The position numbers and the translations under genes were made by a program. Source: Candidatus Sulfomarinibacteraceae bacterium (GTDB taxonomy: Bacteria; Acidobacteriota; Thermoanaerobaculia; Thermoanaerobaculales; Sulfomarinibacteraceae). Taken from it: a DNA stretch of 64,000 bases. The notes beneath the pieces are model-generated. The model had not been told where the DNA came from, did no database searches, and was given only the letters and a program-made list of their open reading frames with translations. The stretch covers positions 24,779-88,778 of the forward strand of contig CAVQQV010000004.1 in NCBI GenBank assembly GCA_963714885.1. Direction: 5' to 3'. Position 1 is the stretch's first letter, and each line of letters starts with the position of its first letter. Of the stretch, positions 15,166 to 39,666 are shown piece after piece.

Positions 15166-15220
15166 AGGATGCTCCAGTTTTTGGCGTACTCAGCCAAAGA
15201 CGGGTCACGATAGCACGATG

Positions 15221-15281
15221 CAGCGACAGCGGCTGTCACCAGGGTCAGCAACAGGTTGCAGCGGCAGCGACCGCGACAGCC
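15221..15281. repeat. left arm of interrupted inverted repeat flanking four-helix-bundle gene 1
   Basis: CAGCGACAG (15221-15229) and CAGCGACCGCGACAGCC (15265-15281) are exact reverse complements of 15923-15931 and 15882-15898, in nested order. They are embedded in GC-rich low-complexity sequence (ACNGCN period). Confidence 0.85.
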
Positions 15282-15377
15282 ACCGCCACAGGCACCGCCA
15301 CAGCGGCTGCGCTCGGGTACAGCGACCGTGGCACGGTCACCTCCGGGTCGTTCAAATCGGTTGAGTAGCCGGTGGGC

Positions 15378-15437
15378 AGCCGATGTCAAGGGCAAGCCGG
15401 ACTCGGAGCCCGGTGCGGTGCACCCTTGACATCGGCT
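15378..15437 (+). other. 15-bp perfect hairpin (AGCCGATGTCAAGGG ... CCCTTGACATCGGCT, 30-nt loop) just upstream of four-helix-bundle gene 1
   Basis: Arms 15378-15392 and 15423-15437 are exact reverse complements. The structure ends 24 nt before ATG 15461 and 45 nt before ATG 15482. Confidence 0.85.
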
Positions 15438-15481
15438 ACCTCACCGGCTCAAGAGAGGGCATGAACGACCCGGAGGTGACC

Positions 15482-15838
15482 ATGTCCAACGCCCTCGCCA
15501 ACACCAAACTCATCGCCCACGAGAAGGCTCTTGCGGCAGCTGGTGATGCCATTTCGCTCGTCCTGCGGGTGCCGGCTCCCCTCAAGTCGATTGCCGATCA
15601 GGTGATCCGCTCTGCGAGTTCCGTCCCGGCCAACCTCGCCGAAGGCCACGGCCGGTCCGGACGCGATCGGGTGCACTTCTGGAGGATTGCCTACGCATCG
15701 GCCAAAGAGGTCGACAGCCACCTGCGACTTCTGGAACGAGCTGGGGCCGTCAACACCGGTAAAGCCGAGAAAGTGCTCGAGACACTCGATCAGGTCCGCG
15801 CCATGACCTGGCGGCTTATCAACCCGAAGACTGAATGA
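15482..15838 (+). CDS. four-helix-bundle protein (23S rRNA intervening-sequence protein / Avd-like family)
   Basis: MSNALANTKLIAHEKALAAAGDAISLV...SVPANLAEGHGRSGRDRVHFWRIAYASAKEVDSHLRLLERAG. It shares the (A/S)N(L/I)AEGxGR...A.(A/G)S..E signature and ~120-aa size with the copy at 31537..31899. GGAGG lies 5 nt upstream of ATG 15482 (alternative ATG 15461; track start 15383 unlikely). Confidence 0.7.
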   Translation: MSNALANTKLIAHEKALAAAGDAISLVLRVPAPLKSIADQVIRSASSVPANLAEGHGRSGRDRVHFWRIAYASAKEVDSHLRLLERAGAVNTGKAEKVLETLDQVRAMTWRLINPKTE

Positions 15839-15881
15839 CCACGACTCCGTACCGGGGCCGGTCGCCGTCGCCGGCTGCTGA

Positions 15882-15931
15882 GGCTGTCGCGGTCGCTGAA
15901 TCCTGTTCCTGCCTCTGTCAACTGTCGCTGT
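15882..15931. repeat. right arm of interrupted inverted repeat flanking four-helix-bundle gene 1
   Basis: GGCTGTCGCGGTCGCTG (15882-15898) and CTGTCGCTG (15923-15931) are reverse complements of the left-arm cores. Confidence 0.85.
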
Positions 15932-15991
15932 CCCCGCCGCTGGCATCGACTCGTATCAGCGCGCGCTTCTCGATGGGGCGGGTGGCCGGAA

Positions 15992-16026
<35 letters not shown>

Positions 16027-16029
16027 GTT

Positions 16030-17385
16030 TCACCCCACCACGGGCTGGCGGCGGACGAGGATCGACGGCGCGCCGATGAATCCCTGATGGGTCTGAAACC
16101 ACCGGCGGTCGTTGCCCACCGCCTCGATGCGGCGCAGGAGCTGCCCGAGGCTGCCCTGAAGCTCGACCACCGGGTGCCAACCGCGGACCCGCGGGCCGTC
16201 GAGCCAGACGCCGGAGGCAATCATCCGGTAGGTGTCGGCGGCAAAATCGACCTCGATCTCGGACAACGGCCGCAGGAGGTAGAGGGCGTGGTCGGCCGAA
16301 CCCAGAAGCTGGGCCGCGGCCACTCCGGCGCGGGAGTCCACCACCAGGTTGGCGGCGCCGGTGGATGGGTAGTCGCGGTAGGACACCCTCAGAGCGCCTC
16401 CGCGTGCGGGTTCCGAGCAGCGCGTTGCGTCGCGAAACGACGCCAATCGGTAGCGCGGGATTCCTTCGTCGAGGAGGACCGTCCGGCGGGAGGGAAAGCC
16501 CTCGCCGTCGCAGGGCCCGGTGATCGGGGCCTCCGGATCACAGCGGTCGTCGACCAACGTCAACGCCGGCCCCGCCAGTCGTCCGTGGGCATCCAGCAGA
16601 GCGGACAAGTGGTCCTCTTCTTCGCGAACCGCCACGAACAGCGGCGAGATGGCGGCCAGCAGTTGGGCCGCGACCTCGGGGTGGAGAATCAGATCGCGCA
16701 GACCGGAGTCGGTGGCGACGCGGCGCCGGATGAGCAGCGCGCGGTCGGTGATCTGCGCCGCCGCCGCCTCGATGTCGAAGGTCTGGGGATCGCTGATGTG
16801 AAGCCAATCACGCCACACGCCCGCCCGTTCGCCCACCACCTCCACCTCGGCCATGAGCGAGGTGGTGGCGTCCTGATGCCGGGCGACCCAGCCGTCGCCG
16901 GTGACCAGGACCCAGGCGTAGTTGCCCTCCTGCAGCACCGCGCGGCGCAGCCGCAGGTGTCCTGAGCCCAGGCTCGCCACCGCCCGATCGAGCTCTTGAC
17001 CGGCGTGGGTCGCCCACCCCTTCGCCGGCAACTCGCGCGCTGCCCGGGTCTCGGTCAGACCGAGCAGGCGCTCCGGCGGCAGGGGGTCGGCCGCGAGCGG
17101 TGTCGCGGTCGAAAGGGCGGCGTTGATTGCACGCCGGGAAGCGTCCTCTTCGAGCCCGGATGCGGCGGAAAAGCCGGCCCGGTTGTCGTCCCAGACCCTG
17201 ATTCCGACCCCGGTCTCCTCGATCTCGAGGACCCGCAGCGGCTGGCCCGAGGCGACCGCGACCTCGCGCGACATCGACGCCTTCGCGAAGACCTCCCAGC
17301 GGGCGGTGCCGGCGGCTTCGAGCCGGGTGCGGGCGGCGGCGGCTGTCGCGTGGAGACGATCGAGATGATCGGAGCCTTGGCTCAC
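16030..17385 (-). CDS. pmbA: PmbA/TldE-type metalloprotease modulator subunit
   Basis: TldD/PmbA-family sequence without the HExxH box (…GVGIRVWDDNRAGFSAAS…, C-terminal …GVWLDGPRVRGWHPVVELQGSLGQLL). The likely start GTG 17385 overlaps the tldD stop (GTGA). The Arg/Pro-rich first 69 aa of the track ORF look non-coding. Confidence 0.7.
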   Translation of the reverse strand: MSQGSDHLDRLHATAAAARTRLEAAGTARWEVFAKASMSREVAVASGQPLRVLEIEETGVGIRVWDDNRAGFSAASGLEEDASRRAINAALSTATPLAADPLPPERLLGLTETRAARELPAKGWATHAGQELDRAVASLGSGHLRLRRAVLQEGNYAWVLVTGDGWVARHQDATTSLMAEVEVVGERAGVWRDWLHISDPQTFDIEAAAAQITDRALLIRRRVATDSGLRDLILHPEVAAQLLAAISPLFVAVREEEDHLSALLDAHGRLAGPALTLVDDRCDPEAPITGPCDGEGFPSRRTVLLDEGIPRYRLASFRDATRCSEPARGGALRVSYRDYPSTGAANLVVDSRAGVAAAQLLGSADHALYLLRPLSEIEVDFAADTYRMIASGVWLDGPRVRGWHPVVELQGSLGQLLRRIEAVGNDRRWFQTHQGFIGAPSILVRRQPVVG

Positions 17386-18683
17386 AAGACCTCCAGGCGA
17401 TCCACCAGCAGGCTCGGCGCCTCGGACCCGGTGGGCAGGGGCACGCCGTCCTTGACGCACCATCCGAGCCGCCAGTCGGGGGTCGGGTCGTCGCCGATCC
17501 GTGGATCGATGTTGGCGAGGCTTTCGAGAACGTTGCCGGTGAGCTCGCACGGGGCCAGGGGCCGGCGGCGGCGGCCGTGTCGCACCTCCCACCCGCGTTC
17601 GACCTTGAGCACTATGCGCAACGACACCGGGTCAACTCTCGCACCGCCGACCCGCGTTACCACAAGCCCGTGCTCGAGGTCGGCTTCGAGATCCTGGGGG
17701 CGCGTGGCCCCGGCGGTGATGACCAGGTTCGACAGGCGCGCGACCGGCGGCAGGGACCACACAGCGCGCCGCCCGCGTCCAGCGTCGCAGCGCAAACCGC
17801 GGCCGCCTTCCCGGTCGCACAGAAAGCTCTCGAACCGGCCGTTCCGGATGAGCGTGACAGGTGCTGCGCGCACTCCCTCGTCGTCGTAGTCGAAGCTGCC
17901 GGGGAGGTCGGTTCGGGAGGGATCGTCGATGACCTCGAGCCCTGGCGAGCTCACCGCTGCCCCGAGCAACTCCGAGAACGGCGACCCGCCGGCTCTCGCC
18001 AGGTCCGACTCGGCCATGTGGCCGACCGCCTCGTGGAGAAAGATGCCGGCGGTGCCATCGGTGAAGAGAACCGGCAGCCGCGTGCCGGCCGGCGCCGCCC
18101 AGGTCTTGGTGGGATTCCCCTCGAGCAGCCGTTCGATCCAGGAGCCCAACCGGGGATGGCCCCACACCGCCAGCAGGGCCGACGACGTTTCCCCCCGGCG
18201 CTCCACCCTGACCAGTGCAGGGGTCGAAATCGGTGTCCAACCCTCAGCGCGGACGACGGCCGCGCGCCGGCTGATATAGCGGACCACGCCGTGAAACGCC
18301 GCCAACTGTTGTGCCAGATTGCGGGCCCAGTCCTTCCAGGCTCGTGGGGGGTCCATCTCGGGCGCGGGGATCAACCGCGTCGACGGCATCGGCACACGGT
18401 CGGCGTGGCGGGCGAGCAACTCGCCGATCGCAGCCGTCGAGATCCCGGTTCGGGCAGAAAGTATCACCCGGGAAGGCGACCGCCAGCGCGCAGCCACGCC
18501 CTCGAGGCGACAGGTCTCGATCTCCAGCTCGCCGCCTGTGACCGCCACCTTCAGTTCCAGGCGCTGCTCGAGGTACAGATCCTCGAAACGGGCGCCGCCA
18601 CCTCGCAGCTCGCCGCAGTTTTCTGACAGGAGGTCCAGCCATCTCGCGTCAAGCGGTGGTTCGGGTCGCGGTTGGCCTCGCAT
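17382..18683 (-). CDS. tldD: TldD-type zinc metalloprotease
   Basis: [13 protein letters not shown] metal-binding box, [27 protein letters not shown]. Start ATG 18683 ([15 protein letters not shown]...) is chosen because upstream track-ORF residues overlap the divergent pccB leader. Confidence 0.75.
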
Positions 18684-20365: not shown

Positions 20366-20370
20366 TCTTC

Positions 20371-24344: not shown

Positions 24345-24512
24345 CCAAAACCGTCTTGGTCAGGGGCCCGCCCGACGTTCGAAACAACTCGGTTGCGTGC
24401 TCAGTCTCTTGCAGAAGCCATCGAACTGTCACCCCGGGCGGCATGTATGCCGCTCCTGAATGAAAACCGCCTCAGGGTTGGAGGGGCGGGGCGAATCGGC
24501 CCGACCTTTCTC

Positions 24513-24702
24513 AAAGCCGTAGGCGGGTCCTTCACGTAAACGACCCGCCTACGCCTTTCAGAAACACCCCGACCACCGATAAAGCCGTAGGCAGGTCCTT
24601 CAGGGCCTGCCACCACAATGTTTCAGACCACGAATCGCGATCATGAAGACTTTTGCGTTCGTGGGCGGGCCGTAAACGACCCGCCTACGCCTGTCAGAGA
24701 AA
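24513..24702. repeat. cluster of three GTAG-headed palindromic (REP/REPIN-like) units
   Basis: Unit 1, 24513-24565: aaagccGTAGGCGGGTCcttcacgtaaacGACCCGCCTACgcctttcagaaac. Unit 2, 24581-24613, shares the 5' half (aaagccgtaggcaggtccttcag...cctgcc). Unit 3, 24661-24702, shares the 3' half (cgtaaacgacccgcctacgcctgtcagagaaa). Confidence 0.85.
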
Positions 24703-24776
24703 TCTTTGCCGAATTGATTTCGAAGGCTGCAAGAGGCTGTGCTCTCTGACGAGGCAGGTGATAGACTCTCCGATCA

Positions 24777-25763: not shown

Positions 25764-25971
25764 TTGGTGAGGATGTTGCCCTCATGAGGCCTGAAAGCTG
25801 CCTGAATGTTGGCAGGGAGTTTGCAATCTAGGGCATTGTGAATTTGTCTCTAAAATAATGAGAATTCTGGAACACAAGGGAAAGGAGGACAAGGGGACCG
25901 GAGTGTAACGGGGGTGGTCGGTGGAATGACGTGCCCCTCAGAAAACAGATCTGGATTCAAGGAGGAAAGGT

Positions 25972-28941
25972 ATGAAAGTTTCGGGAAAGATTCTTATTGC
26001 GTTTCTGGCATGCACACTCGCGTCCGGCGCCCTGTTGGCCCAGACGACCCGTGGTGACATCCAGGGCCGCGTCGGCGACGAGGCCGGCACCGCCCTGCCG
26101 GGCGTGACCGTTGCCATCGACTCGGACGCGCTGATCGGGAAACAGGCCACCGTCACCGACGCACAGGGCACCTACAAGTTCCTCGTGCTGCCCCCGGGCG
26201 CCTACACGGTGACCTTCAGCCTGTCGGGTTACCAGACCCGTTCGCAGGAAAACATCGCGGTCAAGATCGGTTCCACCACCCGCGTGGACTCGGTCATGAC
26301 CTCGGCCTTCACCGACGAAGTCGTGGTGACCTCGGAGTCGCCGCTCGTCGACACCTCGAACACCACCATCGGTGTCGACCTGTCGTCGGACTTCTACAGC
26401 GGCCTGCCGACCGGCCGTAACTACACCTCGGTCGCCGCGGTGACCCCCGGCGCTCAGACCGACGCCTCGGGCACGACCTTCTACGGTTCGTCCGGCGCCG
26501 AGAACGCCTACTACATCGACGGCGCCAACACCACCGGCGTCGAGCTCGGCCAGCAGGGCACGACTCTCAACTTCGAGTTCATCGATGAGGTCCAGGTCAA
26601 GTCCGGTTCCTACAACGCGGAGTACGGCCGCGCCACCGGTTCGGTGATCTCCGTGATCACCAAGTCCGGCGGCAACGAGTTCCACGGCGACGTGTTTGGT
26701 TACTGGGATTCGGCCTCGCTGCAGGCCAGCCTGAAATCAGCGCCGGCCGACGGCGCGGTCTCGGGCACCTTCCAGACCGTCGACTACACCCGTTACGACG
26801 TTGGTGTGGACCTCGGCGGCTACATCGTCAAGGACAAGCTGTGGTTCTTCGCAGCCTACGACTTCGTCTCCAACGAGAACAACAACGAGGTCCTCAAATC
26901 GGCCCCGGTCGCAGGTGCGCCGGCGGAAGGCGACGTTCTCGGCGCAGACCACCGAGAGCGACCTGTGGGCGGCCAAGCTGACCTGGCGGATCGCGGCCAA
27001 CCACTCGCTGTCGGGCTCCGGCTTCGGTGACCCGTCCACCCAGACCGGCCCGCTTCCCGGGATCGGGCTCGCCGCGACGCCGCTCCATTACATGGGCGAC
27101 ATCGAGACCGGTGGCACCAACTACTCGTTCAACTACGACGGCATCTTCGGTCAGAACGTCGTCCTCAGCGCGCGCGCCGCGCAGCACAACGAGCAGAGCA
27201 TTCAGACCGGCGCCGGCGCCACGTGGTCGGCTATCATCGACCAGACCAACCCGCTCGGCGACGGCACCACCGTCTACGGATGGTCTGCGGACTCCAACGC
27301 CAACGACCCGGGTGGCTGGTTTTGGCTTCTTCCAGAACCAGGAGTTCTCGCGCGACCAGTACAACGTCGATCTGTCGTGGTTTGTCGGCAATTTCGCCGG
27401 CTCGCACGAGTTCAAGGGCGGCTACGAGTATGAAGACATCGGCGTCAAGAACGACAACTGGAACGGCGGCGCCGGTCAGCGGATCTACCGTTACAACTGC
27501 GTTCAATCAGCCACCCGCGACTGCCAGGGCAACGCCTACTACTTCAACCACCGGATCTACCTCAACTCGGCGGGTCTCGATGCGACCGAGTTGACCACCG
27601 CCGACATCCAGGCGCCCCTGACCGTCGACACCAAGGCCACCAACGACGCCTGGTTCGTTCAGGACACCTGGCAGGTGACCAGCAATCTGTCGCTGGCGCT
27701 CGGTGTGCGTTTCAGCACGCAGCAGCTCTACAACGCCGACGGCGAAGTCTCGGCCGACATCAACGACAACGTCGCACCGCGTCTCGGTTTTGTCTGGGAC
27801 CCCTCGAGCACAGGCAAGATGAAGGTCTTCGGCCACTGGGGCAAGTTCTACGAGACCATCCCGATGGACATCGTGATCCGCTCCTTCGGCGGCGAGATCT
27901 CGGTCTTCAGCTACAACCTCTCGGACGACCCCAACGACGTCGCCAACGACCCGACGGTCCGCGCCTCGCGGATCCTGGGCGGCGGCTTCTCGGATGTTGA
28001 CCCCGGCACCAAGGGCCAGAACCTCGAGGAGTACGTGGTCGGTTTCGAGTACGAGTTCGCCTCCGACTGGGCGGCCGGTATCAAGTACATCAACCGTCAA
28101 CTCAACCGGGTCATCGAGGATGCGTTGTCGGCCGACGGCAACTACTACATCGGCAACCCGGCCTACGGCCAGATGACCGGCACCTACGACCTCGGCTATG
28201 CCTACGGCTACAACCCTTGCCCGACTCCCGAGGAATGCCCGAACTTCCACCCGATCCCGGTCCCGACCCGCGAGTTCTCGGGTATCGAACTGACGTTGAA
28301 GAAGCGTTTCTCCAACAACTTCCAGTTCATCACCTCGTTCCTGTTCTCCGAAATGACCGGAAACTACGACGGCACCTTCCAGGCCTCGACCGGTCAGCTC
28401 GACCCCAACCTGAACTCGGCCTTTGACTACGCCGACTTCCAGGTCAACAACACAGGGGAACCTGTCGAACGACATTCCGTTCCAGTTCAAGTTCGACGGT
28501 ATCTACCGCTTCAACTTCGGGCTCTCGACCGGTCTTTCCCTCTACTACACCGACGGCAAACCGATCACGGCTATGGGCTTCTCCAGCGCCTACAACAACT
28601 GGGAGTACTACCTGTCGGAACGCGGCGCCTTCGGCAATGCGGATGCGTACTACGAGGCGGACGTCCACCTCGGCTACCCGATCAAGCTCGGCTCGAGCCT
28701 GGAGCTCAACGTCCTGGTCGACATCTTCAACCTGTTCAACATGCAGGGCGAGACGAGCCGCAGCCAGCGCTACACCACCACCGATACCGAGTACAGGGTG
28801 TACGACTGGGACACCGGCGTAGCGTTACCGCCGATCCGACCGGGTGACACCGACCGCCCGTCGGACAACCCGGCCTTCAACACGGCCAACAACTGGCAGG
28901 ATCCGACCACGGTCCGTCTCGGCGTGCGTCTGTCCTTCTGA
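25972..28941 (+). CDS. TonB-dependent-receptor-like outer-membrane barrel with N-terminal carboxypeptidase-regulatory-like domain, three apparent frameshifts (~26925, ~27315, ~28455)
   Basis: AGGAGG precedes ATG 25972. Signal MKVSGKILIAFLACTLASGALLAQ; CarboxypepD_reg block GRVGDEAGTALPGVTVAI...TDAQGTYKFLVLPPGAYTVTFSLSGYQT; plug-like ...VKSGSYNAEYGRATGSVISVITKSGGNEFHG. The barrel continues through ORFs 26801.., 27027.. and 28423..28941, ending in the aromatic terminal ...VRLGVRLSF. Confidence 0.8.
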
Positions 28942-28963
28942 TCAGGCTTTCAGAGCCATTACC

Positions 28964-28991
28964 GGGAGGGCCTTCGGGCCCTCCCTTTTTT
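28964..28991 (+). terminator. rho-independent terminator after the OMP gene
   Basis: GGGAGGGCC-ttcg-GGCCCTCCC followed by TTTTTT, 23 nt after the stop. Confidence 0.8.
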
Positions 28992-29020
28992 GATGTCTGG
29001 GCGATCCCGCCGGTGCTAGA

Positions 29021-31498
29021 ATGACCGCCATGTCGCGACGAAATCTCGTTGTTGTTTGCGCCATCGTCCTGGTTCTTGCAACCGTGCTGTGGGCCACGGT
29101 GGCCTGGGTCCCCGCCGAAGGCGGATTGTGGGTGTGGACACGCCGAGACGGGTCGGCTGCGGGTGCCGGAGGGTGGGCCCGCGATCGCTCCGAGGTGGTC
29201 GGGCGAGCGGCTCGAAGCCCACCGGTTGGCCGCAGAGGTGCCGGCCGCCACTGCCGATGGCGCCAAGGTCGAAACCGTGATCGAGCTTGCGCCCCCGGTG
29301 GGTGTGTGGCAGCTCGCCGCGGCTGACACGCCCGGTGAGGGGCTGCGGCGGAGCGTTGCCGACACCGTGCGGCAGACGGTTGGCAGTCTGCCGCTGGCCT
29401 GTTTTGTCGAGGGCTCGCCCGCCCCGGCGGGTTGTCCGCCGGACCCCGCGGCCTTCTTGCGCCAGGCGCTGGCGATGTCGCTCGGCGTCCCCGAGGGGGC
29501 GGTCGCAGTGACCCTGGAGCCCGACCGCGCGGAGGTTCGCGCGGGTCTGCTCGGCGAGATCGCGGCCGGGCTTTCGCTGCCGCGCCACAAGGTGCTGGTC
29601 CTCGGTCTCGACGGTCTCGACTGGGACCTCGTCCTGCCGTGGGTGGAGGCCGGGCGAATGCCCAACCTGAAGCGACTGATGGATGCCGGGACCTGGGGCA
29701 CGATGACGACCCTGGTGCCGATGCTGTCGCCTCTGATCTGGACCACGATGGCGACCGGGGTGTCGGCCGACGTGCACGGCGTGCTCGACTTCGTTGAAAA
29801 GGACCCCGAGACCGGGCAGATGGCGCCGATCACCGGGCGCAGCCGCAAGGTGCCGGCGGTCTGGAACATCGCCTCCGCGCTCGGGCTCTCCGTCGACGTG
29901 GTCGGGTGGTGGGCGACCTGGCCGGCCGAGCGGATCAACGGCACCATGGTCTCCGACCGTCTGTACTACACCCTGCAGCAGGGGATCCCCAAGGAGGTCT
30001 TTCACGAAGATCCTCCGGATCTCGTGTTCCCGCCCCAGCGGACCGCCGAGTTCACCGCCCTGCGCGACCGCGCGGTGGCCGAGACCGACTGGCGCGCGGT
30101 GCGCTTTCTGATGAATGTCCCCGAGGACGTCTTCGACCGGGCCGTCGCCGAAAACCTCGGGATGGAAGACCCGATCGACGGGATGCGCCGCATCCTCAGC
30201 GCCACCCGGACCTACCTGGGAGCGGGTCTGGACCTGGCCGCCGAAAAGCCGGATCTGATGATGGTCTACCTCGAGGGCACCGACACCATCGGCCACCTGC
30301 TGGCCCCGTACCTGCCGCCGCCGACCCTCGAGATCGACGATGCCACCGCCGCCGTCGTATGCGGCCGCCGTGCCCATCTACTTCGAGATCGTCGACCGCT
30401 GGATCGGCCGCTACCTCGAGACCTGCCCGCTCGACGAGTATGCGGTGGTCCTGGTCTCGGACCACGGTTTCAAGTGGGGCCGGGAGAGGCCCAGTGGTCT
30501 GTCCGGGACCGCCGGTCCGACGGCGCCGCTGTGGCACGCCGACGACGCGGTCTTCGTGATCGCGGGCACCGGGGTCGCGCGCCGCGGTCGGGTCGAGGAG
30601 AAACCCTCGGTATACGACGTCGCGCCGACCCTGGCCGCTCTCCTCGGGGTGCCCGCCGACCCGGTCTGGCCGACCGCACTGCTCCCCGGTTCGCCGCCGG
30701 CGGATCGCGGCCCCGGTGGAGTGGGCGCCGTTGGTGCCGCCGGCCTCCTACAGCCAGAGCGGTGGTGGGGTGGCGCCGGTCGACCCCGAGTTCATCGCCA
30801 AGCTCAAGGCCCTCGGCTATATCGGCGAGGACGGCACCAGCGCGGGTCGAGACGGCAGCGGAACCGTCCGCGCCGGTCGCCGCACCGACAGCGACCTGCC
30901 CGCCGCACCGACCCCGCAGCCGGCCAGCGCCACCCGCGGCCAGATCAACAACCTGGCGGTCATCAAGATCAACGAGAAGAAGTACGACGAGGCCGAGCGG
31001 TTGCTGCGGCAGGCGATCGCGATGAGCCCCGAGTACGCGTCGCCGCACTTCAACCTGCGCCGGATGTACATGGAGACCAAGCAGTGGGAAAAGGCCGACG
31101 AGCAGCTGTGGATCGCCGTCGACAAGGGCCTCCGCGACCCGGAACGGACGCTCGACCGCGCGGCCGCCGACTATGAAAGCCTGAGCCTGCCGGAACGCGC
31201 CGAGGCGCTGTTGACGCGCGCCATCGCGCGCTACCCGGAGCACGAGCCCTACTACGTCCACCTGATGGTGCTGCGGGTCCGCGACGATCGTTGCGCCGAT
31301 GCCATGCCGGTGGGCGCGGTGGCGTCCGAGAAGTTCCCCGGCAGCGGTCCGGTTCACGCCTTCTACGGCCTCGCCGCGGCCTGCGTCGGCGATGCCGAGA
31401 TCGCCCGCCGGGAGCTCGAGTGGTCGCTCGAGATCAACCCCCAGCAGCCGATGTTGCGCGAGGCGCTCGGGCAGCTGCCGCCTGGCGGCGGCAGCTAG
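29021..31498 (+). CDS. alkaline-phosphatase-superfamily enzyme (type I phosphodiesterase/nucleotide pyrophosphatase-like) fused to C-terminal TPR repeats, three apparent frameshifts (~29155, ~30350, ~30715)
   Basis: TM anchor MTAMSRRNLVVVCAIVLVLATVLWATVAW. Catalytic core KVLVLGLDGLDWDLVLPWVEAGRMPNLKRLMDAGTWGTMTTLVPMLSPLIWTTMATG...VYLEGTDTIGH...VLVSDHGF. TPR tail in ORF 30716..31498 (NNLAVIKINEKKYDEAERLLRQAIAMSPEYASPHFNLRRMY...). Confidence 0.65.
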
Positions 31499-31501
31499 CT
31501 C

Positions 31502-31550
31502 TTAGCTTTTAGCCGTTAGCTATTAGCTGTTAGCGGTTAGCTTTTGGCTG
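31502..31550. repeat. heptamer array (TTAGCNN) x7
   Basis: ttagctt ttagccg ttagcta ttagctg ttagcgg ttagctt ttggctg. It starts 4 nt after the TAG of the upstream gene and overlaps the last codons of the four-helix-bundle ORF on the other strand. Confidence 0.95.
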
Positions 31551-31899
31551 CGTTCAGCTTCTGTATGAAGCTGTTGAGCATCTTCTTGACCTCGCTGATC
31601 TCTGTGTGCAGGTCTTCGTGAGTCCGAGGCGTCAGATACCCGAGATCACGCGCAAGCAACAACTGATACTCCGCCTCGCTGGCCGAGCCGGCGGCGATGC
31701 TCATGAACCTCGCCAATTCCGCCTCACTGTCTCGGCCGCAGCCCTCGGCGATATTCGATCCAATGGACGTGGCGGTCTTTCGCAGGTGGGCTGCGAGGCC
31801 GAATCGTTCTTCCGGCGGAAACTTTATTGTCGAGCGATAGATGTCGAGGACAAGTTGATGTGCCTTCTGCCAGACCTTGAGTTTCGTGAAGTCTCTCAC
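31537..31899 (-). CDS. four-helix-bundle protein (23S rRNA intervening-sequence protein / Avd-like family)
   Basis: MRDFTKLKVWQKAHQLVLDIYRSTIKFPPEERFGLAAHLRKTATSIGSNIAEGCGRDSEAELARFMSIAAGSASEAEYQLLLARDLGYL is a textbook member of this family as I remember it. The ORF is intact at 120 aa. Confidence 0.8.
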   Translation of the reverse strand: MRDFTKLKVWQKAHQLVLDIYRSTIKFPPEERFGLAAHLRKTATSIGSNIAEGCGRDSEAELARFMSIAAGSASEAEYQLLLARDLGYLTPRTHEDLHTEISEVKKMLNSFIQKLNAAKS

Positions 31900-31982
31900 C
31901 AGAAGCCTCGCCCACCCACCACCTGTGATCTGACGCGCTCCACGTCGCTGAAACTCACCATCCTCCCACCCAGCTTCAACAA

Positions 31983-32017
31983 AAGCTAACAGCTAAAGGC
32001 TAACAGCTAAAAGCTTT
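31983..32017. repeat. heptamer array (NNGCTAA) x5, reverse complement of the 31502-31550 array
   Basis: aagctaa cagctaa aggctaa cagctaa aagcttt. The array ends on the stop codon (32017-32019) of the convergent VWA gene. Confidence 0.95.
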
Positions 32018-33786
32018 CAGTCCGGATTCACGGCGACCGCGATGGTCTGATAGGAGTCCTGCCGGGTCAGGGGGTCGAGGACGGCGACCGCGATCTTGTA
32101 GCGACCCGATTCCATCAGCAAGGTAGTGTCGATCCCCCAACGCTGTCTCTGGGCATCTTCGTAGTCTTTCGCCGGGACACTGATCTCGTGCTCCTGGCGG
32201 ACCAGATCCGATTGTTTGCCGTTGCTGTCGCGGGCGGCCACGAAGAGCACGATCCGCCCGACGTAGTTCTCGCCCTCGGGGAGGAGGGCGATCTTGCGGA
32301 TCGGAAACGAAATGTGGGTCGGCAACAACCACCGCTTCTCGCTCGCAGTCGATGCCGTGCCGGCCTCGACCTCGACCTGCATCGGGTTGTCTTCGACCTC
32401 GAAGACCAGACTCGAGACCACCGTGTCCTGGACCTGGGTTTCGAGGGACTTCTCGACCAGCCGCGCGCGGTAGCGCAGTTCGTAGTCGTTGAACGCCGGG
32501 TCATCGCGGAGCTTGACCTTGACCTTGTGGACCTTGTCCCTGCCGCTGGCCTGCAATGGGTAACCGATGGAGTAGTAGGTGAACATGTCCTGGGTGACCA
32601 GGCTGAGCCTTGGGCCGACATCGTTGGTGTTGATGATGGCGATACCGCCGGTCTCGTCGGCCAGGAAGCGCAGGCTGTCGGTCAGGTTGTGACGCCCCAC
32701 CGAGGCCGAGAGCGGGTCCTGGGCGCTCGCGAACTCGGCGCTGCCCATGCCGCCCATGGTCAAACCCGCCGCGTCGATCGAGTAGAAGGCCACGTCCTGG
32801 GCGTTGGCGGTTGCGGCCAGACCGGCGAACGCCCTCGTCTGGTCGAACTCGTACATCCGGGTCAGGATGGACGAGCTCTGGGTGACCCTGTTGAGCTCGT
32901 AGAACAGATCCATCCCCGGGACCATCGGCAGGCCGTTGGAGACGTAGATGATGCCCTTTTTCCCGGGCAGCCCCGACAGACTGGTGATGATCTGGCGCAG
33001 GGCGTCCATGGTGAACTTGAGGTCGTTGACGCCCTCTCTGGCGTAGTTGTCGATCAGTTGATAGGCCTCGTTCCACTCACTACCGAGGTCAGAACCACCG
33101 GATGAGCCACCGGTGCCGCTCCGTTTTTCGTTCTCGATCGACTTGATGCGATCGATGATGTCTTTGCGGGTGCTCTCGTTTTCGGTGCGCCCGCCGGTGT
33201 AGCGGCGCACAGCGCGCAGGGCATCCATCACCTTGTTCGGATCCGACGTGAAGGGTTGCAGCACCTCGAAAAAGCGCTGGTAGGCCACGACCATCATCTG
33301 GGCCGGCGGGTGAAGACTGGTTCGCACGAACTCCCGTGTCTGGGAGAGCACCCGGTTGCGGTCGAGGGGGTCGAGGTTCTGGTTGTCGATGTAGAGCACC
33401 ATGTGGACCGGGATCGGCCCCGCCTCGTCGTCGGGGGCCGGCGTCGGAGTGGCCAGGGTGAAGGTGTCGTCCGCCTGGGATGCCAACTGGGTGCGGATGA
33501 TCTCGTCCGTGTAGAGCTTGAAGTTGGTGATCTGTTTGGCCTCGCCGTCCTGAAAGACCTCGAAGTCGTCCGCCGTAAGGTCAGTGATGGCGATGCCCTT
33601 CTTGTCGGTCACATAGACCACCAGATTGGCGATCGTGAGTTCATACTCATCGACAAAGGTGAGACCGCCGATGGGGCGGATCGGGTTCTCTACCTGCGGT
33701 TCTTCTTCGTCGGTGCCGGCCGATATCGGCAGAGCCAGCATCACGATCAACAGCCACGCCAAGGGACGCAGTTTTTCCACGCGCAC
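32017..33786 (-). CDS. secreted VWA-domain protein (acidobacterial TIGR03436-like)
   Basis: Intact 589 aa. Signal MRVEKLRPLAWLLIVMLALPISA; N-terminal beta domain (…LTIANLVVYVTDKKGIAITDLTADDFEVFQDGEAKQI…); VWA core (VHMVLYIDNQN…IIYVSNGLP…FYSIDAAGL); ADETGG motif. Confidence 0.75.
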   Translation of the reverse strand: MRVEKLRPLAWLLIVMLALPISAGTDEEEPQVENPIRPIGGLTFVDEYELTIANLVVYVTDKKGIAITDLTADDFEVFQDGEAKQITNFKLYTDEIIRTQLASQADDTFTLATPTPAPDDEAGPIPVHMVLYIDNQNLDPLDRNRVLSQTREFVRTSLHPPAQMMVVAYQRFFEVLQPFTSDPNKVMDALRAVRRYTGGRTENESTRKDIIDRIKSIENEKRSGTGGSSGGSDLGSEWNEAYQLIDNYAREGVNDLKFTMDALRQIITSLSGLPGKKGIIYVSNGLPMVPGMDLFYELNRVTQSSSILTRMYEFDQTRAFAGLAATANAQDVAFYSIDAAGLTMGGMGSAEFASAQDPLSASVGRHNLTDSLRFLADETGGIAIINTNDVGPRLSLVTQDMFTYYSIGYPLQASGRDKVHKVKVKLRDDPAFNDYELRYRARLVEKSLETQVQDTVVSSLVFEVEDNPMQVEVEAGTASTASEKRWLLPTHISFPIRKIALLPEGENYVGRIVLFVAARDSNGKQSDLVRQEHEISVPAKDYEDAQRQRWGIDTTLLMESGRYKIAVAVLDPLTRQDSYQTIAVAVNPD

Positions 33787-33866
33787 CTCCGTGGCGAGTC
33801 TAGCAAACCCACGCTCGTCAAATCCGTATCCTGATGGATGGCGCCTTCGTTGCCGCGGTATGATCG

Positions 33867-34451
33867 ATGGCCGTGACCGGAAAGACTGAGAAGCTGTCGG
33901 ACGAAAAGCTGGTCGAGCTCGCTCTCGACGGCGATGAGGATGCCTACGGCGCGCTCGTGCGACGCTATCAGCGGCGCCTGACGGCGTTTCTCGGGCAACT
34001 GGTCGGTGACATCGAGCTCGCGCGCGAGCTTTCGCAGGAGGCCTTCATCCGCGCCTGGTCCGCCCTCGCGAGGTTCGATCCCCGTTACCGCTTTTCGACC
34101 TGGCTGTTCAGGATCGCCCACAACCTGGGTATCGACCACCTCCGGCGGCGGCGGCTGCAGACCGTGGGTCTGTACCGGACAGACTCGGATGGCGATGAGG
34201 TGGAGGTGGTGGTTGCCGCCCTCGACAAGGACCCCCTCGGTCACCTCGAAAACAGGGCCCTGGCCGAGGAGCTGCACCAGGTCATCGACAACCTGCGGCC
34301 GGAGTACCGCGAGCTGGTTCTGCTGCGTCATTTCGGCGGGCTCAGCTATCAGGAAATCGCGGAGTTCAAAGACATGCCCCTGGGCACGGTGAAAAACAAA
34401 CTTTTTCGAGCCCACTCCGTATTACGTAGAGCGTTGGCCGCTTTCGTGTAG
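33867..34451 (+). CDS. ECF-type RNA polymerase sigma factor
   Basis: Region 2 (YGALVRRYQRRLTAFL...AQEAFIRAW...FDPRYRFSTWLFRIAHNLGIDHLRRRR) and region 4 (LRPEYRELVLLRHFGGLSYQEIAEFKDMPLGTVKNKLFRAHSVLRR). Confidence 0.85.
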   Translation: MAVTGKTEKLSDEKLVELALDGDEDAYGALVRRYQRRLTAFLGQLVGDIELARELSQEAFIRAWSALARFDPRYRFSTWLFRIAHNLGIDHLRRRRLQTVGLYRTDSDGDEVEVVVAALDKDPLGHLENRALAEELHQVIDNLRPEYRELVLLRHFGGLSYQEIAEFKDMPLGTVKNKLFRAHSVLRRALAAFV

Positions 34452-34461
34452 CGGCGGCGGG

Positions 34462-35022
34462 ATGATCGCAGAGGAGGCGCACGTGGCGAGCGAATGTCAG
34501 ACAATCCAGGAGGCCCTCTCCGAATACCGCGGTGAGGTTGTCCGTCTCGGTGCCACCGAGCGGCAGCACGTCGACGCCTGCCCGGGATGTTCGGAGGTTG
34601 CCGCCGCCGAAATGGCTCTCGGTCTCATCTTTCGCGAGGCGGTGGCGCCGGCCGACCCGTCGGTGGTCGCCGGTGTGATGTCCGCGCTGCGCCCGGTCCG
34701 GATTCGCCGTCGCGTTGTGGCATTCGTGCCCGTCGCGGCATCGCTGCTGCTCGCCGTGGTCGGCGCGGTGCTGGTCGGCGGCGTCCCCGGTAGCGGGGTC
34801 GTCTCGCTGTTGCCAGGTTGGTCGACGCAGGGATGGTCTGCCGTGCTGGGCGGGGTCTCCGACTGGTACAGCGCGACCTCGACCGTAGCCGCGGCGGCGA
34901 CCGCAGCAATCGACCCGGCCTTCCTGGCGGCAGCCGGGATGATCGGTTTGATCGGTCTTGCGGGCGTGGTTGCCACTGCCCGGCGATGGCGTAAGATCTC
35001 GCCATGGCGCAAAAGCGACTGA
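34462..35022 (+). CDS. putative membrane anti-sigma factor (Cys/His N-terminal motif + one TM)
   Basis: Immediately downstream of the ECF sigma gene. N-terminus C-x(~26)-H-x3-C-x2-C (ECQ...HVDACPGC), then hydrophobic spans. No further homology recognised. Confidence 0.5.
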   Translation: MIAEEAHVASECQTIQEALSEYRGEVVRLGATERQHVDACPGCSEVAAAEMALGLIFREAVAPADPSVVAGVMSALRPVRIRRRVVAFVPVAASLLLAVVGAVLVGGVPGSGVVSLLPGWSTQGWSAVLGGVSDWYSATSTVAAAATAAIDPAFLAAAGMIGLIGLAGVVATARRWRKISPWRKSD

Positions 35023-35867
35023 TCCTCCTTTCGACGTTCGTCTTCTGCTGGTCTTTGAGCAACGCACCGGCTGAGGCCTTGCCCAGCCGGACCGCGATTC
35101 TTGCCGACCTCGTGGTGGATGGACCTGTGGATGGCGATGTGGTCGTGTTTGCCGCCGATCTGGTTCTCGGCGAGAACGCCCGGGTGACCGGGGACGCGGT
35201 GGCCGTGGGTGGGAGTATCCAACTCGAGGCCGGCGCCGAGGTCGGCCGCCACGTGCTGGCGGTGTTGGGCACCACAGAGGTGGCCACCGGCGCCACGGTG
35301 GACGGAAGGGTGCTTTCTTTTGCATCCCTGGCGAGTCTTTCCGATGTCCAGGGTGCTGGGCCCTCCTCGCCGCGGGTCAGCGTGGCGGTACGGCTCCTGG
35401 CTTCGGGGGGGTGGCTGCTGGTCACGACCGGTCTCGCCTTCCTCTTTCCCGTTCGGTTGCGCTACGGCGCGTGGGCGTTGCCGCCCCTGAGCTACAAGGT
35501 GCCGGCGCTGGGGGCCCTCGTCGCTGTGACCGTCACCGCATCGCTGGTGGCAGCGCTTGGACTCGGACCGGCCCTCGGCGTGCCCATGATCGCGGGGTTG
35601 ATGGTCCTGTTCTTCGCCGGCAAGGCGGCGGGTCTCACCGTTCTGAGCTGTGCGGCGGGATCTGCCGTGTTGCGACGATGGCTGCACCATCCTCTGCCCA
35701 TCACCCTCGAGGTCTTTGTCGGGATGCTGGTGTTGTTGGTTCTGCGGTTTCTCCCATTTGCGGGCGAGACCCTGTGGTCCCTGCTGTCGATCCTGGCGTT
35801 GGGGGCGAGCATCGCGGTGATCGGTGTCGGGCCGGGCGAAACCGCGACCGATCCCGCACGATCCTGA
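35004..35867 (+). CDS. bactofilin-like beta-helix domain fused to a polytopic membrane domain
   Basis: Signal MAQKRLILLSTFVFCWSLSNAPAEA. Repetitive VVDGPVDGDVVVFAADLVLGENARVTGDAVAVGGSIQLEAGAEVGRHVLAVLGTTEVATGATVDGRV, then about 5 TM helices. Overlaps the anti-sigma gene by 19 nt (same operon). Confidence 0.55.
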   Translation: MAQKRLILLSTFVFCWSLSNAPAEALPSRTAILADLVVDGPVDGDVVVFAADLVLGENARVTGDAVAVGGSIQLEAGAEVGRHVLAVLGTTEVATGATVDGRVLSFASLASLSDVQGAGPSSPRVSVAVRLLASGGWLLVTTGLAFLFPVRLRYGAWALPPLSYKVPALGALVAVTVTASLVAALGLGPALGVPMIAGLMVLFFAGKAAGLTVLSCAAGSAVLRRWLHHPLPITLEVFVGMLVLLVLRFLPFAGETLWSLLSILALGASIAVIGVGPGETATDPARS

Positions 35868-35970
35868 GGCGCGCGCAAAGCCGCCAACCGTCCTCGTTTC
35901 GGGTCGGCGACGAGACGATTCTTGCCTTGAAATGCTATACTCCGCGTTCCCTTCGGGGAGAGGTGTGCGT

Positions 35971-36501
35971 GTGAAGATCGATATCTCATCTCTCGAGCAG
36001 GAACCGCTGCTGTTTGACGAGCGGTTCACGGTGGAGCCCGAGCGGCTCGATAATGAAGTTGTGGCCACGCCGGTGAAGGTCCGACTCGAGGGCGAGGTGC
36101 GGGCCGACGGCGAGGCCGTAACGGTCTTCGGCCGCTTTCGCGCGGAGGGAACGATGGCTTGTTCGCGATGTCTCGACGACGTGCAGTGGATGGCCGACGA
36201 GCCCTTTACCGTGGAGTACCGGTGGCCTGAGAAAACGCCTGGTGATGACGAGATCGGTCTCGAGGAAGAGGATCTCGATGTCTCGTTTCTCGAGGGAAAC
36301 GAGATCGATCTGTTGGAGTTGGCGGCAGAACAGATTCTGCTGACTCTGCCGATGCGAATTCTGTGTGACGAAAACTGTGCCGGGCTGTGTCCGACCTGCG
36401 GCGCCAACCGCAACCGGGCCGCCGCCTGTGAGTGCCCACCGGAGGTCGATCCGAGGTGGCTGGCTCTGGCGGATTTGAAGAGCCCGCGTTCCGAAAGCTG
36501 A
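35971..36501 (+). CDS. yceD: YceD/DUF177 family protein (precedes rpmF)
   Basis: GTG 35971 follows GGGGAGAGG. C-terminal Cys cluster MACSRCLDDV...ILCDENCAGLCPTCGANRN plus conserved synteny with rpmF-plsX. Confidence 0.75.
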   Translation: MKIDISSLEQEPLLFDERFTVEPERLDNEVVATPVKVRLEGEVRADGEAVTVFGRFRAEGTMACSRCLDDVQWMADEPFTVEYRWPEKTPGDDEIGLEEEDLDVSFLEGNEIDLLELAAEQILLTLPMRILCDENCAGLCPTCGANRNRAAACECPPEVDPRWLALADLKSPRSES

Positions 36502-36528
36502 TGAACTGAACTCGATTGGAGTCTGAAG

Positions 36529-36714
36529 ATGCCAAATCCGAAACACAAAATTTCAAGAACGCGCCGCGACAACCGACGTTCTCACGATGCCTTGACCACG
36601 CCTGGCAAGAGCCTCTGCACGTCGTGCTTCGAGCCCAAGCCGCCTCACCACGTGTGTCCACATTGCGGAAGCTACAAGGGCCGTGAGGTGATTCGGGTCC
36701 AAGAGCTCGACTGA
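36529..36714 (+). CDS. rpmF: 50S ribosomal protein L32
   Basis: MPNPKHKISRTRRDNRRSHDAL...CTSCFEPKPPHHVCPHCGSYKGREV. Confidence 0.95.
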   Translation: MPNPKHKISRTRRDNRRSHDALTTPGKSLCTSCFEPKPPHHVCPHCGSYKGREVIRVQELD

Positions 36715-36844
36715 CGACCGGGGCCTGTGGCTCATCGTTTATCACACGGGATGGCGAGGGGTGCCGGAATCCCGGGATCCCGCCACGATTTCCCGTGCGG
36801 CTTGCGGCGTGAACCGACGCCCCGAAGCAAAACCTCGGTAAGGT

Positions 36845-37873
36845 ATGCGGGTTAAGGGCCCCATTGCCGTCGATGCCATGGGAGGCGACGGAGCGCCCCA
36901 TGCGATCGTTCGCGGCGCCCTCGAAGCGGTCACCGACCTTGGAATCCCGGTCCGGCTCGTCGGGCCTCTCAAGAGATTGCGGCGCGAACTGGGGCGTTTC
37001 CGGATGCTGCCGTCAGGGCTCGAGCTGATCGATGCGCCGGATGTGGTGGGCATGCAGGACCCACCGGTCAGCGTGCTGCGAGGCAAAAAGCGGTCATCGC
37101 TCAACGTCTGCGCAGAGCTCGTCCAGGATGGCACGGCGAGAGCCATGGTAACGGCCGGCAATACCGGTGCGGCGTGGGTGGCGGCGAAGGCGGCGCTGGG
37201 AATGATCCAAGGCGTCGACCGCCCGGCCCTGGCTGCCGTCGTCCCCAAGAGCGTGGGCCAGACCCTGATTCTCGATGTCGGTGCCAACGTCGAGTGCAAG
37301 CCTCACCAGCTCGTCCAGTTCGCGGTCATGGGATCGCTTTACGCCACCGGGGTTCTCGGTGTGAAGAACCCCCGGGTGGGCCTGATGTCGGTGGGCGAGG
37401 AGGAGACCAAGGGCGGGCCGAGAGCGCGCCAGCGCAACCTCGTCCTCAAGGCGGCCGGAATCCGCTTTATCGGCAACGTGGAAGGCGGCGACGTCTTCAA
37501 CGACAAAGTGGACGTGATCGTCTGCGACGGTTTCACCGGCAATGTGATCCTCAAGGTGGCCGAGGGTTTCGGCGAAATGGTCGTCGGCATGCTGATGAAC
37601 GAGGCGAGGCAGTCGCCGATGTACGGAGCCGGCCTCCTGATGGCCAAAGGCGCCTTCCGGAATCTCCGCAGCAAGGTCGATTACTCGGAGTACGGCGGTG
37701 CGCCGCTGCTCGGGGTCAACGGTGCATGCCTGGTCTGCCACGGGAGATCCACCGCCAAGGCGATTCGGAACGCGATTCGGTTCGCTGATTCCTACGCGGA
37801 AAGTGGCGTCATCGAGACCATCGGCAACACGATCTCCGATGTCCTGGTGACCTCGTCCGAAGGAAAGGAATGA
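36845..37873 (+). CDS. plsX: phosphate:acyl-ACP acyltransferase PlsX
   Basis: IAVDAMGGDGAPHAIVRGALEA..., TAGNTGAAW, GLMSVGEEETKG, DVIVCDGFTGNVILK, GAPLLGVNGACLVCHGRS. Confidence 0.9.
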   Translation: MRVKGPIAVDAMGGDGAPHAIVRGALEAVTDLGIPVRLVGPLKRLRRELGRFRMLPSGLELIDAPDVVGMQDPPVSVLRGKKRSSLNVCAELVQDGTARAMVTAGNTGAAWVAAKAALGMIQGVDRPALAAVVPKSVGQTLILDVGANVECKPHQLVQFAVMGSLYATGVLGVKNPRVGLMSVGEEETKGGPRARQRNLVLKAAGIRFIGNVEGGDVFNDKVDVIVCDGFTGNVILKVAEGFGEMVVGMLMNEARQSPMYGAGLLMAKGAFRNLRSKVDYSEYGGAPLLGVNGACLVCHGRSTAKAIRNAIRFADSYAESGVIETIGNTISDVLVTSSEGKE

Positions 37874-37874
37874 G

Positions 37875-38813: not shown

Positions 38814-38839
38814 GAGTGGACTGGAAAACGGGGGGCCAC

Positions 38840-39592: not shown

Positions 39593-39635
39593 ATTCGTTT
39601 GAATTTTGAATTCGGAATCCCACCCACCCACCCCC
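39579..39635. repeat. heptamer array (AATTTTG/AATTCGG-like) followed by CCCACCCACCCACCCCC; paralogous to 20313-20365
   Basis: agttttg aattttg aattcgtttg aattttg aattcgg aatcccacccacccaccccc. It overlaps the last 4 codons and the stop of fabG. Confidence 0.9.
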
Positions 39636-39666
39636 GGATCAGGACGAGGGAGGGGAGCCTGAAGCG

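Follow-up and report, generated by a model that had tools for sequence, protein, structure and literature searches.

Why is a small protein gene enclosed by two arrays of tandem heptamers that are inverted relative to each other, and why does it fill, together with these arrays, the whole gap between two convergent stop codons? The question is raised by a locus in a genome assigned to Candidatus Sulfomarinibacteraceae bacterium (Acidobacteriota; assembly GCA_963714885.1). It lies at 31502..32017 of a 64,000-nucleotide stretch (positions 24,779 to 88,778 of contig CAVQQV010000004.1), which is here called the window and to which coordinates refer unless a related locus, numbered with the prefix L, is named. 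The gene encodes a four-helix-bundle (4HB) protein, and the gene and its arrays together are called the cassette. The explanation that we favour, with some reserve, is that the locus is an intact copy of a widespread cassette of the intervening sequence (IVS) type, consisting of a 4HB gene and inverted heptamer arrays, which here lies outside ribosomal RNA (rRNA) and whose mechanism is partly resolved.

A gene bounded by inverted heptamer arrays

On the plus strand, the left array at 31502..31550 consists of the units TTAGCTT, TTAGCCG, TTAGCTA, TTAGCTG, TTAGCGG, TTAGCTT and TTGGCTG, that is, six exact TTAGC cores, (TTAGCNN)x6, and one degenerate unit. The right array at 31983..32017 consists of AAGCTAA, CAGCTAA, AGGCTAA, CAGCTAA and AAGCTTT, that is, four exact cores, (NNGCTAA)x4, and one degenerate unit. 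Tandem Repeats Finder (TRF) assigns period 7 to both, with 7.9 copies on the left and 5.0 on the right. The right array is the reverse complement of the left array, and a 120-amino-acid open reading frame (ORF) with a GTG start is bracketed between them on the minus strand (31537..31899). In the sense of this ORF, the right array is the upstream array, (TTAGCNN)n, and the left array is the downstream array, (NNGCTAA)n. Each arm measures 31-35 nt, and the two are 86-90% complementary. A pattern of three units, TTAGCNNTTAGCNNTTAGC, occurs in the 64-kb window at the cassette arrays only, with 0 occurrences expected from 100 shuffles.

The TAG stop of the TPR gene (30716..31498, plus strand) at 31496..31498 is placed inside a degenerate first repeat unit, CTAGCTC, of which the final CTC then precedes the left array. 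On the other side, the TGA stop of the VWA gene (32017..33786, minus strand; TIGR03436 acidobact_VWFA, E 1e-51) at 32017..32019, which reads TCA on the plus strand, overlaps the last base of the right array, and the array begins 0-3 nt past this stop. The 4HB ORF is co-directional with the VWA gene and lies 117 nt downstream of it. The left array encodes the final four codons of the ORF and its TAA stop (31537-31539). A G-rich leader of 83 nt (31900..31982, minus strand; GGTGGTGGGTGGG) separates the upstream array from the start codon and contains a Shine-Dalgarno (SD)-like GAGG at 31906-31909 on the minus strand, 6 nt ahead of the GTG, that is kept in the alleles of L005 and L085. A sigma-70 consensus scan of the cassette found no promoter; one weak terminator-like hairpin was found inside the left array, which is not better than those in shuffled sequence. 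The GC content of the ORF is 56%, compared with 64.6% for the window. In silico folding of the RNA of 31490-32030, on each of the two strands, joins the arrays in a stem that encloses the ORF (z -3.8 and -3.3), a result that 0 of 100 shuffles equalled. An Rfam scan of 31000-32500 at E values up to 1 gave no match to rRNA or to any other known RNA family.

These results agree with a preliminary description made from the sequence alone, which had proposed an array-bounded 4HB cassette wedged between convergent stops and an ORF less GC-biased than its neighbours; the checks that it had suggested, a search against TIGR02436 and PF05635 and a fold against shuffled controls, came out in its favour. 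Its inverted period-7 arrays also stand, but not the count of seven and five exact units, which are six plus one and four plus one degenerate.

The encoded protein

The 4HB protein is assigned to PF05635 (E 2e-38, 131 bits; cut-off 33.8) and to TIGR02436 (E 2e-37, 128 bits; cut-off 24). Its closest solved relative in the PDB is 2gsc (XCC0516, E 3e-20), and both 2gsc and 2rld, another solved relative, were deposited with five chains. XCC0516 is described as a homopentameric toroid (PMC4990558). Compared with its alleles in relatives, the 4HB gene has a ratio of nonsynonymous to synonymous substitution rates (dN/dS) of 0.09-0.14; by this measure the ORF is under purifying selection and is kept functional in most copies. 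The models of Avd, a protein of diversity-generating retroelements (DGRs), give weak matches only (PF22296, E 1e-5, 26.5 bits, cut-off 40; NF033474, E 3e-8, 33.9 bits, cut-off 80). PADLOC matched neither of the two 4HB proteins of the window to a defence system, and no relatives of the protein that would indicate phage carriage were found in viral contigs.

The same architecture in other bacteria

A scan for homologues, restricted to one genome per species, yielded 80 loci with protein identities of 46-89% from more than 15 phyla, among them Acidobacteriota, Gemmatimonadota, Myxococcota, Desulfobacterota, SAR324, Chloroflexota, Verrucomicrobiota, Planctomycetota, Bacteroidota, Deinococcota, Nitrospirota, Actinomycetota, Patescibacteria and others. 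TRF found 127 period-7 arrays in the 64 kb of sequence at most 400 nt away from the gene, compared with 57 in the other 382 kb, and no period other than 7 was enriched near the gene. With a gene set defined by hidden Markov models (HMMs), there are 1.7 arrays per kb in the vicinity of the gene, about ten times the density of 0.17 per kb elsewhere. The flanks are inverted copies of each other: the best ungapped match of the upstream flank to the reverse complement of the downstream flank has a median score of 17, against 8.5-9 for shuffled, other-locus and direct-orientation controls, and it lies above every shuffle in 53 of 77 loci. In 30 of the 46 loci with TRF arrays on both sides, which together contain 31 distinct heptamer units, the upstream consensus unit is the reverse complement of the downstream unit with at most one mismatch, whereas 1000 permutations of the pairing gave a mean of 7.7 such matches and a maximum of 16. 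The enrichment at the 80 loci and the matched-unit test rule out a chance juxtaposition of arrays and ORF, and the recurrence of the unit in five independent assemblies and in finished plasmids rules out an assembly artefact. The arrays form the boundaries of the cassette.

The median array length is 4.65 units on each side (interquartile range 4.1-5.3), with arrays of 10-20 units occurring too, and the mode near 4-5 units is partly a detection floor, as TRF is blind to arrays of less than about three units. The upstream array ends a median of 28 nt ahead of the start codon, and in 28 of 46 loci the downstream array overlaps the ORF end. In 34 of 48 loci, compared with 8% of random positions, a long co-directional ORF has its stop codon at most 30 nt, and mostly at most 10 nt, from the upstream array's outer edge. 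The cassette is therefore usually found immediately after another gene's stop. In 71 of 73 loci the ORF has a lower GC content than its flanks, with a mean difference of 7 points, but this content tracks that of the host. A sense stop codon is present in 88% of the downstream units, compared with 36% expected, which may be a by-product since the stop of the ORF itself usually lies in the array (28 of 46).

A tblastn search against plasmids gave 33 records, mostly from Nostocales, of which six were examined. On the finished plasmid of Calothrix PCC 7716, TTAGCNN units precede and NNGCTAA units follow a 4HB gene that is antisense to both of its neighbours. The corresponding units are AGTCAGG and CCTGACT on a Nostoc punctiforme plasmid, and TTYAAGG and CCTTRAA on a Riemerella plasmid, while a Pseudanabaena plasmid has approximately 15 AAAAGCT units upstream of the gene; the arrays of one Nostoc 7120 copy are weaker. 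The Pseudanabaena cassette (P. galeata plasmid pPg_01, L158, 1286-1965) is placed between cas6 and cas4 of a CRISPR-Cas operon, a position that may explain why the 4HB family has been listed as CRISPR-associated (PMC10910872).

Most contigs with close 4HB homologues do not reach 3 kb in length, and the strain contig L003 ends inside an array. The heptamer arrays evidently break short-read assemblies, and the cassette is probably under-represented in metagenome-assembled genomes.

Turnover of the cassette at the VWA/TPR junction

The exact 4HB protein is also encoded on four other contigs (L001-L004, one labelled Thermoanaerobaculales JACXWA01), the DNA of which is 96.5-99.2% identical to the window and in which the position and the orientation of the cassette are the same. 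The upstream array is identical in the five strain-level copies, and the downstream array has 6, 8, 9 or at least 9 units depending on the strain.

With the VWA protein as query, a metagenome scan found 73 loci, and the state of the junction was read at those in which the VWA and TPR genes are still adjacent and convergent. The 4HB gene is on the VWA strand in the window, L001-L004 and L085, and the cassette is inverted in L005, L088, L090 and L092. The junction is empty in L094, where it measures 9 nt and the two stops share CTAG, and in L112, where the VWA gene is 85% identical and the 40-nt junction has no arrays. A mini-palindrome scar, GGTTAGCTAATTGCTAAC, is present in L087, and a remnant of two units beside an unrelated hairpin in L091. 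Finally, L098 (4768-5546) contains arrays of (TTAGGTA)n followed by an ORF for a Y1 transposase resembling that of insertion sequence (IS) IS200 (PF01797, E 2e-8) in place of the 4HB gene.

The segment 2885-3382 of L005 aligns to 32015-31518 of the window at 86.7% identity, and both flanks are collinear at 90-94%, which places the inversion breakpoints inside the arrays. In L088, the last 570 nt of the VWA gene are 99.1% identical to the window (dS 0.03), yet the cassette is inverted and only 86% identical. This copy (1357-1716) has an in-frame stop in its 4HB gene (KAH*LVL) and is decaying. Between the window and L085 or L005, the 4HB genes have a dS of 0.47-0.58 and a dN/dS of 0.09-0.12, and the adjacent 3' end of the VWA gene has a dS of 0.18-0.20; the VWA values were taken from the last 570 nt because indels make an ungapped comparison over the last 1200 nt unreliable. 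The two orientations at one junction are seen between genomes, and oppositely oriented copies are 12-14% diverged. Since the states of the junction and the divergences of the 4HB and VWA genes differ, the cassette has a history of loss, inversion and replacement of its own. This is direct evidence for turnover of the whole unit as a block at the VWA/TPR junction, which may be empty, scarred, occupied in either orientation or occupied by a swapped allele. The preliminary description had suggested a mobile or formerly mobile cassette, a suggestion supported by the presence/absence polymorphism that it had proposed to look for, with inversion and allele replacement in addition, and by the further units of ORF and arrays, namely a second, degenerate one in the window and approximately 80 elsewhere.

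Two side observations concern the neighbouring genes. The phosphodiesterase ORF (29049..31025) and the TPR ORF overlap by approximately 310 nt in different frames and may represent a frameshift in one phosphodiesterase-TPR gene. The VWA gene at 8112-9880 of L001, a relative of 524 kb, aligns in two pieces that overlap at residue 410-412, which suggests a frameshift or an assembly error.

Relation to the intervening sequences of 23S rRNA

In Azospirillum lipoferum (L162), a 4HB ORF is located inside the gene for the large-subunit rRNA (RF02541, 2529 bits) and has heptamers in inverted orientation at its two ends, which the predicted fold pairs with each other (z -7.9). The IVS of Coxiella contains two to three GACAGAT heptamers ahead of its ORF, the copy number of which varies between strains, and the 5' cut of RNase III is placed at the first repeat (PMC4990558). 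The Coxiella ORF is reported as decaying and probably untranslated. Judging by these shared features, the classical 23S IVS and the window cassette are the same kind of element, and inverted arms of period 7 are the normal architecture of PF05635/TIGR02436 cassettes rather than a peculiarity of the non-rRNA context, as the preliminary description had implied.

The mechanism that we propose follows the rRNA case. The cassette, which has no recognisable promoter, would owe its transcription to read-through from the gene next to whose stop codon it lies. In the read-through transcript, or in an antisense transcript, the arrays would pair to form an imperfect duplex of approximately 30 bp that encloses the SD and the ORF. 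The RNase III of the host would cut this duplex, as has been shown for rRNA IVSs, and the cut would separate the RNA of the insert from that of its host and thereby make the insertion nearly harmless. At the DNA level, the inverted arrays may mediate inversion, exchange by recombination and deletion of the palindrome type. The proposal of a self-processing RNA module found no support; in the rRNA IVSs, the cut is made by the host enzyme.

Possible selection on the arrays

Several observations weigh against this explanation. For the window organism, we infer read-through, stem formation and cleavage by RNase III only by analogy, and read-through cannot be universal since the gene is antisense to both neighbours at some loci, for example in Calothrix. 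No target-site duplication was found when the empty sites (L094 and L112) were compared with filled ones, beyond a GCTAG stop context of the host that resembles the repeat core, and a Pfam scan of the genes called within 10 kb in L001, a locus 96.5% identical to the window, found no transposase, integrase, invertase or RVT family. Among the mismatches between the arms at 49 loci, 46 would allow G-U pairing in the sense strand and 47 in the antisense strand. There is hence no strand bias, no signal of strand-specific RNA selection on the arms and no evidence that the sense RNA is the selected structure. The arrays were also rotated so that they share an AG anchor, which 105 of 114 contain. Within arrays, the two columns after AGC have a variability of 22% and 31%, compared with 2-7% for the other five columns (chi-square 432, p ~1e-90), and the unit of the whole family is T-Y-A-G-C-N-N. 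At the variable columns, the complementarity between the arms is 0.645, compared with 0.647 after the order of the units has been shuffled, and none of 34 loci is significant. This unit-by-unit test argues against a finely compensated stem: the arms are approximately 90% complementary because both are arrays of one motif in opposite orientation, not because of base-by-base compensation. Such a pattern of variability is not predicted by a purely structural stem and points to sequence-specific, periodic recognition.

The pattern indicates that the 5-nt core recurring every 7 nt is itself under selection, which would be compatible with an RNase III duplex of approximately 30 bp. What remains of the stem built from repeats in the preliminary description is that the arrays pair in the predicted fold; they behave as arrays of a periodic motif.

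A tentative alternative, which we consider possible and which can coexist with the IVS-type cassette, differs from it on what the sequence is selected for. It holds that the arrays serve above all as periodic sites to which the encoded pentamer binds, with one protomer, or one crevice between protomers, per TYAGC unit every 7 nt on single-stranded RNA or DNA. Protein bound to one arm would compete with the pairing of the arms and thereby set the expression or the processing of the cassette. This alternative accounts for five nearly invariant columns out of seven, with two free columns that are uncompensated between the arms, and the median array of 4.65 units is close to the five chains of 2gsc and 2rld. 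A hexamer of HutP similarly reads UAG triplets that are spaced 7 nt apart. For Avd there is a precedent, as cryo-electron microscopy of a DGR revealed one RNA stem-loop that makes contact with each of the five Avd protomers, with flipped-out bases inserted between the protomers (bioRxiv 10.1101/2023.10.23.563531). Since the relatives of the encoded protein are pentameric and Avd contacts RNA with all its protomers, the encoded protein would be the obvious candidate for the reader of the arrays. However, protein binding is a proposal from the sequence pattern, arrays of 10-20 units occur, and the detection floor of TRF shapes the mode at 4-5 units. Furthermore, the arms differ as RNA (UYAGC and GCURA), so that one site could read one arm only, and the core is almost constant across proteins of 46-89% identity, which means that protein and site co-vary weakly.

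Other heptamer repeats in the window and in relatives

A second, degenerate cassette is present in the window. Its 4HB gene (15383..15838, plus strand) is a divergent member of PF05635 (E 1e-17, with the HMM match starting at approximately 15503), and its arms are an upstream arm of CAGC-rich units of about 6-7 nt (15220..15285) and a GCTG-rich downstream arm (15872..15937), each of 66 nt and 71% complementary to each other. Orthologues of this gene with approximately 85% identity are located in different gene neighbourhoods in L164 and L165, two contigs of one sample, and have flanks of the GTCAGC/GCTGAC type.

Standalone heptamer arrays away from 4HB genes start at 15992, 20313, 20368/20444 and 39580, and belong to other unit classes (GAATTTT, TTCGGAW). 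Three of these arrays are located at 20313-20476, in the 5' region of an accC-like gene, and two of the three, (TTCGGAT)x5 at 20368-20405 and (AAATCCG)x5 at 20444-20476, pair with each other around a GC-rich loop of 38 nt (z -4.5) and thus form an inverted pair without an ORF. The array (AATTCCG)x4.7 at 15992-16024 abuts the stop of a minus-strand gene (16030..17592), approximately 150 nt behind the second 4HB gene, and the unit classes AAATCCG and AATTTTG recur in the related contig L165 (3353-3383 and 3687-3718). Arrays of (TTTTGAA/GAATTTT)n at 39580-39640 and 20313-20365 directly follow the stops of a FabG-like gene and of a gene ending at 20312, respectively, and after each of them come GGAA(A)TCC and a CCCACCCACCC-type motif. 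Comparable C-rich or G-rich motifs are found at 31911-31923, 31966-31973 and 15975-15985.

ORF-less inverted pairs of the TTAGC class are found within a few kb of the 4HB gene in Rubripirellula obstinata (L032; 1000-1140, 2860-2985 and 5080-5222) and within a few kb of the cassette in Desulfotignum (L010 and L012). The pairs in L032 lie ahead of genes, and behind the 4HB gene of the same locus there is a threefold higher-order repeat of 72 nt (3400-3620) with an AGCTAAC array in each copy. In the literature, 70-75 inverted GGGAATC pairs per genome are reported for Xanthomonas (PMC4692102), and abundant intergenic heptamers have been published for Xanthomonas, Nostoc and Beggiatoaceae without an accepted explanation. 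According to earlier work cited in PMC4692102 and PMC4679880, an over-representation of heptamer repeats in the genomes of bacteria has been on record since 2007 and is unexplained.

These repeats bear on an explanation that we regard as unlikely, in which the cassette would be the autonomous member of a dispersed repeat system. The system would resemble that of REP-associated tyrosine transposases and their repetitive extragenic palindromes (RAYT/REPIN) or that of insertion sequences and miniature inverted-repeat transposable elements (IS/MITE), and the 4HB protein would act in trans on ORF-less inverted heptamer pairs and create or maintain them in intergenic regions. It would account for the ORF-less TTAGC-class pairs near the gene in L032, L010 and L012, and it is consistent with the ORF-less pair at 20368-20476, with the GGGAATC pairs of Xanthomonas, and with L098, which has heptamer arrays and a Y1 transposase at the same VWA junction. 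In the 64-kb window, however, the TTAGC class is found only at the cassette and the standalone arrays belong to other classes; the TYAGC core is present in none of the 82 standalone arrays in Thermoanaerobaculia-type loci, and four-helix bundles have no known nuclease or recombinase chemistry. A broader and rather unlikely generalisation would be that PF05635 pentamers are sequence-specific partners of 7-nt arrays, with one protomer per unit, and that 4HB cassettes and ORF-less pairs are the autonomous and non-autonomous parts of a system that spreads between phyla, inserts behind stop codons and in rRNA helices, and accounts for part of the heptamer excess.

Unlikely alternatives: a programmed switch or a retroelement remnant

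The occurrence of both orientations at the same junction in close relatives, with breakpoints inside the arrays, would also be expected from a programmed invertible switch, in which a flip decides which of the two convergent genes has a transcript that carries the sense ORF; in either orientation the ORF follows a co-directional gene. We consider such a switch very unlikely. No site-specific recombinase is found among the Pfam matches within 10 kb, the divergence between opposite copies implies that the flips are old and not frequent, the five strain-level copies share one orientation, and ordinary homologous recombination between inverted repeats of 35 nt suffices for the inversions.

That the gene is a stranded Avd from a decayed DGR, or that arrays and ORF met by chance in a heptamer-rich genome, has a negligible probability: the weak matches to Avd models and the other heptamer arrays of the window would fit, but the Avd scores are under their cut-offs and chance is excluded by the enrichment and matched-unit tests. 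A DGR remnant was ruled out by these sub-threshold scores together with the absence of a reverse transcriptase within 10 kb and of a pair of template and variable repeats (TR/VR), as no TR/VR-like direct repeat was found in 24000-40000, where an unrelated pair at 24493/24561 is the sole direct repeat that reaches 40 nt.

Implications

We know of no function for the ORF of rRNA intervening sequences, which has been without one since the 1990s. The window locus and approximately 90 related loci tie this ORF to the unexplained heptamer repeats. In the reading as an IVS-type cassette, PF05635 genes belong to a defined cassette with inverted TYAGC-heptamer ends, of which the rRNA IVS is one setting, the common setting being the gap that follows a stop codon. 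No statement linking PF05635 genes in general to inverted heptamer arrays was found in the literature searched, which is not proof of novelty. The periodic conservation and the pentameric relatives give a concrete and cheap question, namely whether the protein binds to (UUAGCNN)5.

Comparison with known systems

Invertons likewise have inverted repeats that flank a segment and occur in both orientations at one locus. Unlike these, the cassette has no invertase within 10 kb, a whole gene is inverted, and the inversions appear to be rare and old. In RAYT/REP(REPIN) and IS/MITE systems, as in the cassette, a single gene is bracketed by short inverted repeats, and in some genomes the cassette repeats also occur nearby as ORF-less pairs. 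However, the 4HB gene is the sole ORF of the cassette, its protein does not belong to any known class of transposases, no target-site duplication was seen, and the arms are tandem arrays instead of a single palindrome. The Avd protein of DGRs has a related four-helix-bundle fold that forms pentamers and provides a precedent for periodic recognition of RNA, but the 4HB gene of the window has no adjacent reverse transcriptase or template/variable repeat pair.

The published intergenic heptamer repeats (GGGAATC in Xanthomonas, GGGGAYT in Nostoc, TAACTGA in Beggiatoaceae and the heptanucleotide repeats of cyanobacteria) resemble the cassette arrays in that they have period 7, are intergenic, vary in length and often form inverted pairs. 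The ORF-less pair at 20368-20476 is reminiscent of the inverted GGGAATC pairs of Xanthomonas, although it belongs to another unit class. In contrast to the published repeats, which those reports do not link to a gene, the cassette arrays are the two ends of a gene cassette and have a TYAGC core across phyla.

The closest counterpart is the ORF-containing 23S IVS of Leptospira, Coxiella, Brucella and Azospirillum, which is excised by RNase III and encodes a protein of the same PF05635 'S23p' family. In both, an ORF is enclosed by complementary termini in an element of approximately 0.45-0.5 kb, and in the two 23S IVSs examined (Azospirillum L162 and Coxiella) the termini are tandem heptamers, as in the window. 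The window cassette differs in that it is placed between two protein genes, right after a stop codon, and not in an rRNA helix (25 or 45), and excision from its host transcript would split an mRNA rather than fragment a ribosomal RNA. The ORF of the window has the SD-like GAGG and shows purifying selection, whereas that of the Coxiella IVS is reported as decaying. Since it is located outside rRNA, the window cassette is a variant of the ORF-containing 23S IVS rather than a strict member.

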